In this document: one piece after another, positions 18,001-24,000 of the stretch
Position numbering within the stretch: the stretch's first letter is position 1
Layout: the number at the start of each line of letters is the position of its first letter
Origin: an uncultured Nitrosospira sp.
Lineage (GTDB): Bacteria > Nitrospirota > Nitrospiria > Nitrospirales > Nitrospiraceae
Direction of reading: 5' to 3'
Assembly (NCBI GenBank): GCA_900696515.1
Contig: CAADGK010000064.1
Span: 13,055 to 77,054, forward strand
Length of the DNA: 64,000 nt
Made by a program: the position numbers

Positions 18001-21000
18001 ACCGAATCGGAATGAGAGGCAAGGACGATAATCTTGCTTCTGTTCATGAACTCACTCAGCCGTTTCTCCGCCTTTTCCATGAACGCGGCATCACCCGTGC
18101 CGATGATTTCATCCATGAGCAAGATGTCGGAATCCATTGCCGTAACGGTGGCGAACGCGAGTCGTGTCGTCATACCGGAAGAATAAATACGGACAGGAAG
18201 GTTGAGATAATCGCCAAGCTCCGTGAAGGCGGCAATTTCATCAAGCTTCTGAGACACCTCCGTGCGCTTCATGCCCAGCAGGAGTCCACGGATCATAATA
18301 TTCTCCAAGCCCGTCGCCTCCGGCTCCATGCCGAGAGAAATATTGAGTGTCGACACGATCCGACCCTGTATCCGAACAAGCCCGGCGGTCGGCTGATAGA
18401 TACCGGCCAATACCTTCAGCAAGGTGGATTTCCCGGCACCGTTATGGCCGACAAGGCCGATACGGTCCCCTTCGCACAGAGACAAGCTGATGTCCTGAAG
18501 CGCTTTCACCACAGAGACCGTCTTGTTTGAAGCAATCAGCCCTCCCGTGGCGGCACCCAAAAGGCGAGTCTTCAGTGAAAGATTCGCCGTTCCAACCAAT
18601 GGATAATCCAGACTCAGATTGCGGATCTCGATCGAACTTACCCGAGACATCTCATACCCAAAAGGCGATGCGACCGCTCTTGGCTCGATAGAGCACTGCG
18701 GCGAGGATCGCACTCGCAAAAAGAGTCACTGTAGCCCCCACCCAAGAAGCCAATTGTGGAGAATGCCCTAATAACGGAGAGCGCACCAAATCGACAAAAT
18801 GGGCGAGGGGGTTCAGGGCAACCACCCAACTGCCTTCGGGTAGTAGCCGGGGGAACCAGAATATCGGCGTGATAAAAAATCCCACCTGGAGAAGATTTTG
18901 CGTAATCTGCGAAAGATCCCTGAATCGCACCCCAATGACACTGAGCGCAATCCCAATCGACGCAAGATTGAGCAGCACCAGGATAAATCCCGGCAAGACC
19001 AGCAACCCAAACCATCCTGGCCAAATACTGAAATAGACGTACACACCGAGCACAATGAGCAGATTGTGCCCTAGAATAATGAGGCCTCTCGCGAGCGCGC
19101 GAAGATGAATGATAAGCAGATTAATCCGCATCTCCTTGATATACAGCGCGTTGTCAATAAAAAGATTGGGCATTTCACCAAGACTACCGGCAATGAAGCT
19201 CCAGGCCACAAACCCTATCGAAAGAAACGGCAGCAGCTCGGATATATCCGCTTTAAACAGCTGACTGTACACGCTTCCGAGCGTGACACAGAAAATCGCC
19301 ATGCTGAGGGTGATCCAAAACGGACCGATCTTTGAACGTCGATATTTCGTTTTAATATCCTGCCAAGCGAGAAACGACCATCGGTCATACGCCAAAAGAG
19401 CGGCGAGCAAATCGTTCTGTTGGTCAATCTGCTGAGTATCTGAGGAACGAGTCATCGATTCAGATCCCTATCGTGACCGACTCGCGCAACCTGGTTTTGA
19501 GCCCTCACCATCAGATCTATCACTACGCCATACCAGCTCATACAAAAGCAATGACTCAGAACATATGAGTCAGGGACCTGTGCACGGTCAGTTCTTCTTA
19601 ATACAAAAAGGACGCTCAACATTCCCATCTCTGGTAAGGCTTTCGTCCACGTACTGCCGACGAACAACGCAACGGGAAACTACGCCTCGTCGAGACTTCC
19701 AAAGAACAATACCTAGCCGTTCCTCTCATCTCTCCGTTTCCGACGGATCAATCTCGGAGAACTGTTTTACCTGGCAACGTGTCCATGAAGGAGGCTGAGC
19801 AAATATTGTCCGTATCGATTTTTAGATAGTGGCTGCGCCAGTGCGTCTAGTTGAGCAGCATCGATCCATTGCTGTCTGTACGCTATTTCTTCCGGACATG
19901 CCACCTTTAAGCCTTGCCGGTTTTCCAGCGTGGCGATAAACTGACTCGCCTCCAGCAACGATTCATGCGTGCCGGTGTCCAGCCAGGCATAGCCTCGCCC
20001 CATCATTTCAACGTTCAAGGCCCCCTGCTCCAGGTACAGTCTATTGAGATCCGTGATCTCCAGTTCACCACGGAGCGACGGCTTCAGGTTTTTAGCAAAA
20101 TCGACGACCTGCTCATCATAGAAATACAGTCCCGTCACGGCATAGCTGGATTTCGGCTGCTTAGGTTTTTCTTCCAGTGTGAGCACCTTCCCCTTTCTGT
20201 CAAACTCAACTACTCCGTACCGCTCCGGATCCTGAACATGGTAGGCAAAAACCGTGGCCCCGTTCGTGCGCTCCATTGCGTTGCCAAGTAGTCCGGGAAG
20301 GTCATGCCCATAAAAGATGTTATCTCCCAGAACCAACGCCGATGGATGAGTCCCGATAAACGACTCACCGATGATGAACGCCTGAGCAAGACCATCCGGC
20401 GAGGGCTGCGCCGCATACTGTAAATTCAGACCCCATTGCGTGCCGGTCTGAAGCAGCTGTTCGAACCGCGGAGTGTCCTGCGGTGTAGAGATGATGAGGA
20501 TATCCCGAATTCCGGCTAGCATAAGCACACTGAGCGGGTAGTAGATCATCGGCTTATCGAACACCGGCAGCAGCTGCTTGCTGATCGCCAATGTTGCCGG
20601 ATGCAGCCTGGTACCGGCTCCGCCGGCCAGGATGATACCTTTTCTGGGGAGTGGAGAGTGGAGAGTGGAGAGTGGAGTCATGCGAAGCTCCATTGTTTAT
20701 GCAGACAGGTCAACAATTTTCCTGCGCTATCAGCAAGATCGAATGCTGGATGATCGGGAGTTGTAAGACCCAACATGACCGCAAGTTGCATCTGAGTTTC
20801 TAGTTCCGCGAGTGAGCCGCGTGACATACCGATAAAATGAAGGTACTCCTTTGTTCCATTCCGCCCTGCACCCTCGGCGAGATTACTTGGGATAGAGACG
20901 GCTGCACGTCTCATTTGCTGAGAGAGGCCATATCGTTCCTCCACTGGAAACGTCGCCGTCATTGATACACGGCTTTAGCCAACTCCATCGAGAACTTCCA

Positions 21001-24000
21001 AGCATCAAGCTGCTCGTGCGGCTTCCCCTTCCTCATTTTCCACTTTCTACTTCCCATTCAGCAGAATCTGTTGCAGCACATGCCGCACCCCATTCCGCCA
21101 ATCAGGCAACTCGAAACCAAAAGCCCTACGCAACTTGCCAGTATCCAACCGCGAATTAGCAGGGCGCTTAGCAGCAGTGGGATATTCCGATGAGCGAATC
21201 CCTCGAATGGCCTCCGGCACGAGCTTGAGTGGTTTCCCAGCGGCCAGGGCTTCCGACACGACAAACCTCGCGTACTCACACCACGTTGTCTCACCTCCGG
21301 CGACCACATGGTAGAGACCGAACGGAAAATGATTGTCTCCATCACGTTGCCGTTGCCGGATCAACTGGGCCGTCACATCCGCCAGCAGGGCAGCCGACGT
21401 TGGAGCGCCATGTTGATCGGCCACCACATTCAGTTGTTCCCGCTCAAGAGCCAATCGCAGGATCGTTTTTGCAAAATTATTCCCGTGGGCTCCGACTACC
21501 CAGCTTGTACGAAAAATGAGATGTCGGGCCTGACTTTGCTGAAGCGCGATCTCGCCATCTCTCTTGGTCCGCCCATAGACACTTTGTGGATTCGGAAGAT
21601 CCTCTTCCGCATAGGCGCCCTGGTTGAGGCCATCGAACACATAGTCGGTCGAGTAATGCACCACCCATGCTCCTAGCTTCGCCGCTTCATCTCCGAGAAC
21701 TCCTGGCGCCACGGCATTGACGGCATGAGCTAACGCGGGCTCTGATTCGGCTTTGTCCACCGCCGTGTACGCTCCGGGATTGACGATCAGGTCCGGCCTG
21801 ACCGACCGCACCAGAGTAGAAACTGCGGCAGCATCAGCCAAATCGCAGTCAGCGTAATCGACGGCGTGGATCTCCCCCAACGGAGCCAAGGCACGTTGAA
21901 GCTCGAACCCGACCTGACCATGTTTGCCTGTTAACAGAATTCTCATCGAGGTCAGGAGCTGTAGTGCTTGTCAATCCAGTGACGATAGGCACCGCTGGTG
22001 ACATTTGCAACCCAACTCTGGTTCTCAAGGTACCAGGCGACCGTTTTACGGAGGCCCGTTTCAAAGGTCTCCTGAGGCCTCCAGCCCAGCTCACGCTCAA
22101 GTTTCGTGGCGTTTATGGCATAACGACGATCATGTCCAGGTCGGTCCTTCACAAAGGTGATCAGAGAACGGTACGTGGTACGTGGCAAGTGGCAGGTGGC
22201 AGGTGGGGCAAGTTCATCCAGACTGTCGCAGAGAGTGCGGACAACGTCGAGATTGGTCTTTTCACTTTTTCCGCCGATGTTATAGGTCTCTCCCACAAGC
22301 CCCCCTTCGAGCACAAGCCCGATGGCTCGGCAGTGATCGTTCACGTACAACCAGTCCCGCACTTGCAATCCATCGCCATAGATCGGAAGTGGTTTCCCGG
22401 CCAATGCATTCAAGATGCAGAGCGGGATCAGCTTCTCTGGAAATTGGAACGGGCCATAGTTGTTCGAACAATTGGTGGTCAGAACCGGAAGACCATAGGT
22501 ATGGTAATAGGCCCGGACAAGATGATCACTGGCAGCCTTGCTGGCCGAATAGGGGCTGTTGGGCTCGTAACGATTCGTCTCACTGAAAGCCGGCGCATCA
22601 TTTGTCAATGAGCCGTACACCTCATCGGTAGAAACATGCAAAAACCGGAAACGCCGTTTGGCTTGGCCTTCCAATGTACCCCAATACGCGCGCACCGATT
22701 CAAGCAAGTGAAAGGTGCCGACGATATTGGTCTGGATAAATTCACCGGGCCCATGAATGGAGCGATCGACATGACTTTCGGCGGCAAAGTTGATGATCGC
22801 GCGGGGGCAATGCTCCGTCAACAGTTTGTCGACGAGCACAGCGTCGCCGATGTCACCCCGCACAAAGATATGTTTTGCGTTCCCTTGCAAACTGGCAAGA
22901 TTCTCAAGATTACCCGCGTAGGTGAGCTTATCGAGATTGATGACGGGTTCATCATGCCCCGCCAACCAGTCGAGCACAAAATTGGCCCCGATAAACCCTG
23001 CTCCACCGGTGACCAGGATACTCATCTGACGGGTGAGACTCCTATGAAGCCTGGCGGATCCAACCATGAGTCCTGCACATAGGCGCTACAGGGTCTCATT
23101 ACGATACACGTTGAGGGGTGGCAGGTTGAAAGCTCGGCACCAGTCGTTTGAGATCCTGTACTAGCTCATCTTCATCACAATTCGGGAGATTCACCTGCAA
23201 CATCTCCAACCATTGATCCAGCTCGCCGACAGACACCGGGGCACCGCTTGCTCGATTGATTTTCGCATGGGCCGTGGGTTCGACTTGTTCCTGTTCCTCG
23301 AAGAGTTCTTCGTACATCTTTTCTCCGGGCCGCAGGCCGGTGTAGACAATGTCAATGTCTTTCCCGGGAACCAGTCCGGCCAAGACGATCATATTCCTGG
23401 CTAAATCAGCCACCTTGATCTGTTCTCCCATGTCCAGAACGAAGACTTCCCCTCCACGCCCCATCGAACTCGCCTGGAGCACCAGTTGCACCGCCTCCGG
23501 AATCGTCATGAAAAACCGTTTGATTTCCGGGTGGGTGACGGTCACAGGCCCGCCCTTCCGGATCTGTTCCGTGAACAGAGGAACCACGCTCCCGTTGCTG
23601 CCCAGCACGTTCCCGAACCGCACCACCGTAAACTTTGTGAGACCGGAGCCATTGAACTCCTGCATCATATGTTCGGCGATTCGTTTGGTCACGCCCATCA
23701 CGCTTGATGGATTGACCGCCTTGTCCGTGGAGATCAGGACAAATCGGCCGACGCCTGCCTTGACAGCGGCCTCGGCGACCACGCGAGTGCCCAAGATATT
23801 GTTACGAATCGCTTCTTTCGGATTCAGTTCCATCAGTGGAACATGTTTGTGCGCGGCGGCATGAAACACAATGTCGGGGCCGGTCTGCCGAAACACTTCC
23901 GCCACACGATCCGGCACGGTCACATCTCCGATGATGGGAATAATTTTCACCCTCGGGAAGGTTGTCTGCAGCTCCAGCAAAAGCGAATGTAACGCATTCT

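Follow-up and report, generated by a model that had tools for sequence, protein, structure and literature searches.

How does a tandem repeat come to encode the first residues of a nucleotide-sugar enzyme? The question is raised by a 64,000-nt stretch of DNA (hereafter the window; positions 13,055 to 77,054, forward strand, of contig CAADGK010000064.1) from the metagenome-assembled genome GCA_900696515.1 (4.6 Mb, 144 contigs), which was deposited as an uncultured Nitrosospira sp. and is placed by GTDB in the Nitrospiraceae. Between its rfbD and rfbA genes lies a small gene for a four-helix bundle (4HB) protein, bracketed by arrays of 7-nt repeats, and one of these arrays is read as the start of RfbA. 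We put at about 70% the probability that this locus is a decaying copy of a cassette of the intervening sequence (IVS) type, that is, a 4HB/S23p gene lying between mutually complementary tandem-heptamer arrays. Genomes are referred to below by handles, G000 being the genome of the window.

The rfbD-rfbA junction

The genes rfbB, rfbD and rfbA and the two pieces of the 4HB gene all lie on the minus strand. A first-pass annotation, made from the sequence alone, had described a perfect (GTGGAGA)x3.9 array at 20651-20677 that abuts the 4HB stop codon. The sequence there is indeed GTGGAGA three times followed by GTGGAG, and Tandem Repeats Finder (TRF) agrees, reporting period 7, 4.7 copies, 96% matches and a score of 59; we place this distal 3′ arm at 20645-20677. 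On the sense strand it reads ACTCCAC TCTCCAC TCTCCAC TCTCCAC TCCCCAG, and as a (TCTCCAC)n tract it has no G and hence no stop codon in any sense frame. A 14-mer of the array, GTGGAGAGTGGAGA, has no second occurrence in the 4.6-Mb genome.

The rfbA (rmlA) gene, for glucose-1-phosphate thymidylyltransferase, occupies 19767-20681. Its product scores 515 bits against the TIGR01207 rmlA equivalog (cut-off 361) and carries the G-loop GGAGTRL. The ATG (20679-20681) overlaps the 4HB stop codon as ATGA (20678-20681), with GGAG 6 nt upstream, and codons 2-10 are the near-perfect (TCTCCAC)n array, which is thus read as residues 2-10 or 11. Pseudomonas aeruginosa RmlA structures match RfbA residues 9-298 (E = 2e-156 to 7e-156), and residue 2 of the native protein (1FXO) aligns with RfbA residue 12, in keeping with the statement in the first-pass annotation that RmlA proteins normally begin M-[KR]-KGIILAGG. 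RfbA therefore carries a 10-residue N-terminal extension. A start downstream of the array was considered and rejected: there is no ATG, GTG or TTG between the array and the G-loop, and use of a CTG in the G-loop would remove strand β1. P. aeruginosa RmlA has been crystallised with N-terminal tags that lengthen the native chain by about 10 residues (4ARW, 3ZLK series); an appendage of such length is therefore structurally tolerated, and RfbA probably tolerates its own extension. We conclude that, as judged from the sequence, the distal arm is the only available start of RfbA.

The 4HB gene is split. Piece 1 (20959-21036) has 25 codons and a TGA, reads MRKGKPHEQLDAWKFSMELAKAVYQ and encodes helix 1; piece 2 (20678-20962) has 94 codons and a TGA and encodes helices 2-4. 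The stop codon of the first and the start codon of the second overlap as ATGA at 20959-20962, as the first-pass coordinates had it. Piece 2 matches PF05635 (E = 7.8e-25, 87.6 bits, cut-off 33.8; profile positions 20-88 of 106) and TIGR02436, ‘four helix bundle protein’ (E = 1.4e-24, 86.4 bits, cut-off 24). The helix absent from the 94-aa product is the 25-codon open reading frame (ORF) of piece 1, so the four helices of G000 do not lie in a single frame. The ATGA arises from a one-base deletion at a Gln-Met codon junction: eight intact orthologues of 117-119 aa read MGKPHEQLEAWKFSMELAK.VYQ-MTATFP (...AKAVYQ-MTATFP...) through this point in one frame, and alignment with the closest relative found, G150, places a single 1-nt gap at the frameshift in a cassette 92% identical apart from gaps. 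The frameshift is a real allele of the population rather than an assembly slip: over this site the Logan contigs assembled separately from four runs (ERR3169463-66) match the window at 100% identity. The ratio of non-synonymous to synonymous substitution rates (dN/dS) of piece 2 against G150 is 0.23.

The arm at the other side of the gene is far less regular. The 5′ arm (21022-21056, minus strand) consists of five decayed, purine-rich heptamers, TGGGAAG TAGAAAG TGGAAAA TGAGGAA GGGGAAG on the sense strand, and contains the final codons of rfbD as well as the rfbD TAG stop and the 4HB ATG, the last two as had been noted at the outset. Taken alone, the claim that this is an array is weak. Its period-7 self-match of 0.61 was reached in 49 of 5000 dinucleotide shuffles when period 7 alone was counted and in 397 of 5000 when all periods from 4 to 12 were, and TRF at score 30 does not report the arm in G000. 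Comparison, however, rescues it. The G150 arm matches that of G000 and is exactly 14 nt (two units) longer, and in other orthologues this position is filled by 5-25 clear nnn(A/G)AGT units; we therefore regard the 5′ arm as real.

Upstream of the cassette lie rfbD (21047-21946; dTDP-4-dehydrorhamnose reductase, Pfam RmlD_sub_bind, E = 7.3e-102) and rfbB (21952-23067). Given that no promoter-like or terminator-like site was found on the sense strand from rfbB to rfbA, the genes from rfbB to rfbA are probably co-transcribed. A search of 20300-21400 against Rfam returned no rRNA or other match, only sub-threshold small nucleolar RNA (snoRNA) noise.

One junction in sixteen species

With RfbA as the query, whole genomes from the genus and the family yielded 45 orthologues, whose junctions we read. 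Arrays occupy the rfbD-rfbA junction in 16 Nitrospiraceae species belonging to two GTDB genera. Among these the 4HB gene is intact in eight (G004, G014, G169, G141, G166, G150, G123 and G177) and frameshifted in two, by −1 in G000 and by +1 in G146, where an extra A in an A-run brings a TAG into frame after 60 codons. In G008 the gene breaks off after 43 codons; four other species have lost it by deletion, and at least two distinct junctions are seen among them. In G165, G020 and G017, GGTAAAC (codons 2-3) is joined to the last 4HB bases and the rfbA ATG, the junction in G165 being GGTAAAC-CACATGACTC; this arrangement fits loss between ACCACA direct repeats of a G004-like ancestor. G086 has a different deletion junction and keeps 11 4HB codons. 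The remaining species, G158 (G158:C241), has about 100 nt of N over the 5′ arm and the 4HB start, and its 4HB state was left unscored. One of the intact genes, that of G150, has altered conserved motifs, with NLTEG for NIAEG/NLAEG and AQRE for AELE. The dN/dS of intact orthologues is 0.05-0.19. Low dN/dS combined with repeated loss indicates that the 4HB protein is selected where present, yet dispensable. The suggestion in the first-pass annotation that the inserted element had decayed is thus borne out by the one-base deletion, the two 5′ units lost relative to G150, the sister frameshift, the truncation and the at least two independent deletions.

An ATG followed by an in-frame pyrimidine-rich array is kept in 16/16 array-bearing species, so that use of the repeat as the RfbA start region, predicted for the window, would apply to them all. 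The G-loop stands 42, 51, 63, 66 or 78 nt from the ATG, in frame every time, and the low-complexity extension of RfbA ranges from 10 to 22 residues among the cassette species. Wherever the 4HB ORF reaches the junction, which it does in ten cassette species, its stop codon overlaps the rfbA ATG as ATGA. Between G000 and G150 the distal array has four differences, every one of which turns a G000 unit into TCTCCAC. This pattern bears the mark of recent homogenisation, through slippage or conversion, that left total length and hence reading frame unchanged.

Relatives lacking arrays show what the junction looks like without a cassette. They comprise 12 species of the same genus, which have the plain rfbD-ATGA-rfbA junction, and deeper lineages; in these array-free species either rfbD overlaps rfbA (ATGA) or a different gene lies upstream. 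Their RfbA proteins have the short N-terminus M-x(0-2)-[RK]-[KR]-G-I-I, with the exception of three species with rfbB upstream, which carry an unrelated extension (MSQDSRSGQTVK...). No relative has the extension seen here without the repeats. In the RfbA tree all array-bearing rows fall within one 30-row clade (support 84/78, unstarred); outside it there are no arrays and most junctions are plain rfbD-ATGA-rfbA. The distribution agrees with the proposal that an element was inserted into a conserved operon junction, and about 15 nt are replaced in occupied relative to plain junctions. A miniature inverted-repeat transposable element was also considered as an identity for the cassette and rejected, since there is no target-site duplication and the unit sequence is unique in the genome.

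Six species (G014, G004, G141, G166, G177 and G123) hold what we term the full form: a 5′ array, a short loop, a proximal 3′ array, ATG-4HB-ATGA and a distal 3′ array, the 5′ array being purine-rich and usually longer than the proximal one, and both 3′ arrays pyrimidine-rich. Compared with shuffles, the local upstream hairpins of these species score z = −2.1 to −6.3, and pairing of the 5′ array with the distal array is matched by only 0-3 of 500 shuffles in each. The full form is accordingly predicted to be an IVS-like outer stem around a hairpin and an ORF. The proximal array is absent from G000, G150, G146 and G008, and long-range complementarity is weak there; in G150, 6-27 of 500 shuffles pair as strongly. 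Separately, the other 4HB gene of the window (about 41115-41435, within an element at 41044-41533) follows the full-form plan with 9-nt units.

Array-bracketed four-helix-bundle genes and their relatives

Bracketing by arrays is not peculiar to the rfb site. In the window's own genome, inverted tandem arrays flank 8 of the 9 PF05635 genes on both sides, and each gene has a repeat unit of its own. The only 4HB gene there without detectable arrays (L003, G000:C64:7911-8222) lies just upstream of the window. In the TRF output for the whole genome no period is as frequent as 7 (315 of 1439 rows); where two period-7 arrays are neighbours (95 pairs), 46 pairs are inverse-complementary at ≥6/7 and nine are direct. 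Array length has its mode at 4.x units (28-34 nt) and drops sharply above 5. The genome also holds 46 cargo-less inverted-heptamer hairpins, mainly (GTTTCAN)n/(N'TGAAAC)n; examples are the inverted heptamer arrays at C143:15159-15299, C73:5427-5952 and C39:166151-166238. The seventh position of the units in these 46 hairpins is usually mismatched, in every possible way (A.A, A.C, G.U, G.A, U.U and C.C), and carries no strand signal by which action at the RNA or the DNA level could be told apart; note that ORF coverage proved too crude a proxy for their sense strand. The coding sequence of rfbB holds two period-7 arrays of its own at 22170-22206 (GGTACGT x2.3 and GTGGCAG x3.6), and the G008 rfbB orthologue has a similar repetitive stretch at the matching position.

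The association extends across phyla. We examined homologues (52-67% identity) of one 4HB protein of this genome in 80 genomes from at least 10 phyla (L070-L149). Arrays lie within 200 nt upstream of 70/80 of these genes, downstream of 73/80 and on both sides of 66/80. The TRF rows are dominated by period 7 (166) and period 14 (51), any other period accounting for at most three, and most loci share a unit family, AGCTGAY and its complement, with the Nitrospira query copy. At 34 of the 80 loci a same-strand gene of at least 100 aa can start no more than 40 nt from the 4HB stop, inside the array; supply of the next gene's start by the cassette thus appears to be recurrent, RfbA being an unusually long example. 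Many such downstream genes have MA[ED] as their first residues, encoded by the ATG-GCT-GA that the AGCTGA unit provides, and at L125 and L145 KdsB-like genes overlap the 4HB stop. In the window's own genome, several 4HB C-terminal tails (L002, L007) run into the downstream array, ending for example ...TPHHSPLPLHP before the stop, so that the arrays encode part of the 4HB protein ends as well.

The nearest known system is the IVS of 23S rRNA, and an intact rfb-type orthologue matches XCC0516 of Xanthomonas campestris (PDB 2GSC; E = 4.5e-30), an S23p that has been cited as a homopentameric toroid (PMC4990558). In Coxiella burnetii an S23p ORF, itself decaying, lies in an element with a 28-bp stem in helix 45 of 23S rRNA; its ATG is preceded by tandem heptamers, three of them GACAGAT and the fourth degenerate, their number differs between strains, and RNase III cuts at the first repeat (PMC4990558). 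The rfb cassette resembles the IVSs of Coxiella, Leptospira, Xanthomonas and Brucella (PMC4990558) in having an S23p/PF05635 ORF in the sense of the host transcript, heptamers directly upstream of the ORF start (five degenerate units in G000), an arm of about 30 nt comparable with the Coxiella stem, and an ORF prone to decay while the RNA part persists. Complementarity of the termini around the ORF is significant in six full-form orthologues and weak in G000. Unlike those elements, the cassette lies in a protein-coding operon rather than in helix 25 or 45 of 23S rRNA, its 4HB gene is under strong purifying selection in most sister species, and both of its arms reach into coding sequence, covering the rfbD stop on one side and RfbA residues 1-11 on the other, so that excision of the stem would remove the start of the downstream gene.

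Avd proteins of diversity-generating retroelements belong to the same Pfam family and are pentameric four-helix bundles, and the family binds nucleic acid. Heptamer arrays, however, are not a known feature of those retroelements, and no reverse transcriptase, template repeat or variable repeat was found near the rfb cassette. Cyanobacterial short tandemly repeated repetitive (STRR) heptamers were reportedly described by Mazel in 1990 and Vioque in 1997. Intergenic TAACTGA heptamers occur in Beggiatoaceae, Cyanobacteria and Bacteroidetes, with no function assigned and no link to PF05635 (PMC4679880). They resemble the present arrays in having 2-6 units with a 7-nt period, in lying upstream of starts, in their patchy occurrence across phyla and in breaking assemblies, but they are mainly direct repeats (PMC4679880), whereas the arrays here form complementary pairs whose unit follows the 4HB subfamily. 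In the literature that we searched, no paper links PF05635 genes with heptamer arrays generally, and the Coxiella IVS is only a partial precedent. We take the rfb cassette to be a decayed representative of a type for which the S23p-bearing rRNA IVS is the only relative found in the literature.

Proposed capture of the rfbA start and other explanations

We propose the following sequence of events. An ancestor within the Nitrospiraceae would have acquired the cassette exactly at the rfbD/rfbA ATGA overlap, after which the 5′ array came to end rfbD, and the distal array, with the ATG at its head, became the start of rfbA. In the lineage of G000 the proximal array and two 5′ units would then have been lost, one base deleted from the 4HB gene and four units of the distal array made identical by homogenisation. 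As in the IVS of 23S rRNA, the arrays may work at the RNA level by folding into a long stem for RNase III to cut; the gene for this enzyme (rnc) is present in the genome. Synthesis of RfbA would depend on ribosomes that pass from rfbD through piece 1, ATGA, piece 2 and a further ATGA into rfbA, and the frameshift may have been tolerated because the ATGA that it created at a native Met would preserve this coupling. The cassette itself would be entrenched, since it would own the rfbA start codon, and only the 4HB cargo could be lost.

Several observations weigh against this account. In G000 the duplex of the 5′ arm and the distal array has a predicted energy of −28.3 kcal/mol, and 37-78 of 500 shuffles are as strong; as the arms pair no better than many shuffles, a stem between them may no longer form in this genome. 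The arms of cargo-less relatives fold weakly (z-scores −0.5 to −1.6). Cognate and non-cognate arm duplex energies across 14 orthologous cassettes differ only at p = 0.07, which is not significant, so that co-evolution of the arms at the rfbD-rfbA junction is not supported. The cassette label changes state at least four times within the 30-row RfbA clade; a single insertion followed by vertical descent is therefore too simple, and recombination or repeated gain and loss must be assumed. Finally, no target-site duplication was seen when occupied and plain junctions were compared. An early impression of a compensatory change, A-U to C-G, between G000 and G017 was dropped after the test of arm energies.

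That the frameshift, the arrays or both are artefacts of sequencing or assembly is scarcely credible. The genome is in 144 contigs, tandem repeats are hard to assemble, and contigs do break at the array; against this, the frameshift is identical in the four run assemblies, there is no homopolymer at its site (CAATGAC), all five runs have contigs that cover one or other side of the array, and 15 other genomes have arrays at the orthologous position. The breaks bear on a different possibility. In every one of the five runs a Logan contig stops or starts at the distal array: left contigs (four runs) end ACTCCAC(TCTCCAC)3TCC, right contigs (three runs) begin CTCCAC(TCTCCAC)3TCCCC, the two overlap by 30 nt (k−1), and the far ends of the left contigs vary (loci L042-L048, window 20645-20681). 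Since no 30-mer is repeated inside the tract, the assembly graph must branch there. The branch is most simply explained by co-occurring genotypes that differ in or at the array, which is consistent with, without proving, heterogeneity of repeat number. Gain or loss of 7 nt in the (TCTCCAC)4 tract of codons 2-10 could in principle switch dTDP-rhamnose synthesis, and with it surface polysaccharide, on and off, because the unit length is not a multiple of three and the tract stands downstream of the only start codon and ahead of the G-loop. Such phase variation would suit a tract so freshly homogenised, and Coxiella strains vary in their IVS heptamers. A comparable heptamer tract, placed where a change in unit number would alter expression, is the contingency locus of 7-bp repeats in the 5′ region of Haemophilus influenzae hmw, for which involvement of RNase III has been reported (PMC12721329). 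Unlike that locus, however, the rfbA tract has only four units, which is short for a high-rate switch, and it is in frame in every species; most arrays elsewhere are imperfect, which would damp slippage; and a co-occurring sister strain could explain the branch just as well. Two metagenome scans for forms of this species with other array lengths gave no matches, and look-ups of RfbD and Wzm in public assemblies returned only the same five runs of one project. We consider phase variation distinctly unlikely.

The two remaining alternatives concern what the cassette still does. The split 4HB gene might be functional, either as two chains made by termination and reinitiation at the ATGA or as one chain joined by programmed −1 frameshifting. 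Both pieces are open, piece 2 starts at a native Met, the motifs NLAEG and SLAELETQ are intact and dN/dS is low; that low value, however, mostly reflects shared history before a recent mutation, and eight orthologues keep a single frame. The G146 frameshift, the G008 truncation and the four deletions further imply that loss of the 4HB protein is tolerated at this site, making a functional split gene very unlikely. Programmed frameshifting in particular was rejected, as the sequence at the site, U AUC AAU GAC, lacks a slippery heptamer of the form X XXY YYZ. More room exists for a riboregulator of rfbA, in which the 5′ array would pair alternately with the proximal or the distal array, exposing or hiding the rfbA start, with translation of rfbD or 4HB, or binding of the 4HB protein, as the cue. 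Full forms do combine a local hairpin (z-scores down to −6.3) with complementarity of the 5′ and distal arrays, their 5′ arrays usually exceed the proximal ones in length, and the 4HB gene is under purifying selection. But G000, G150, G146 and G008 keep rfbA without a proximal array, cargo-less species fold weakly, and no ligand or sensor is evident, and we regard this mechanism as unlikely. We therefore favour a decaying IVS-type cassette over these alternatives.

If this is correct, the downstream gene taken over is rmlA, which encodes the first enzyme of dTDP-rhamnose synthesis, and the locus is a concrete case of non-coding repeat DNA exapted as the N-terminus of a conserved enzyme. The series of 16 species at one site documents a 4HB protein that is selected where present (dN/dS of about 0.1), yet dispensable, and repeat arms that outlive the 4HB gene because they came to serve rfbD as its stop and rfbA as its start. 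For annotation, RmlA starts and ‘hypothetical 94-aa’ calls in such genomes need care. More tentatively, PF05635 cassettes might be widespread, RNA-structured invaders of operons, whose arms, about five heptamers each, would be recognised by the cassette's own pentameric 4HB protein and which would become irremovable by taking over an upstream stop and a downstream start codon and leader. The rfb series might then be read as a time course of capture, entrenchment and cargo loss, and the rfbA tract might add on/off variation, at strain level, of surface polymers that contain rhamnose. Two loose ends, the function of S23p and its IVSs and the unexplained excess of 7-nt tandem repeats in many bacteria, may be one.

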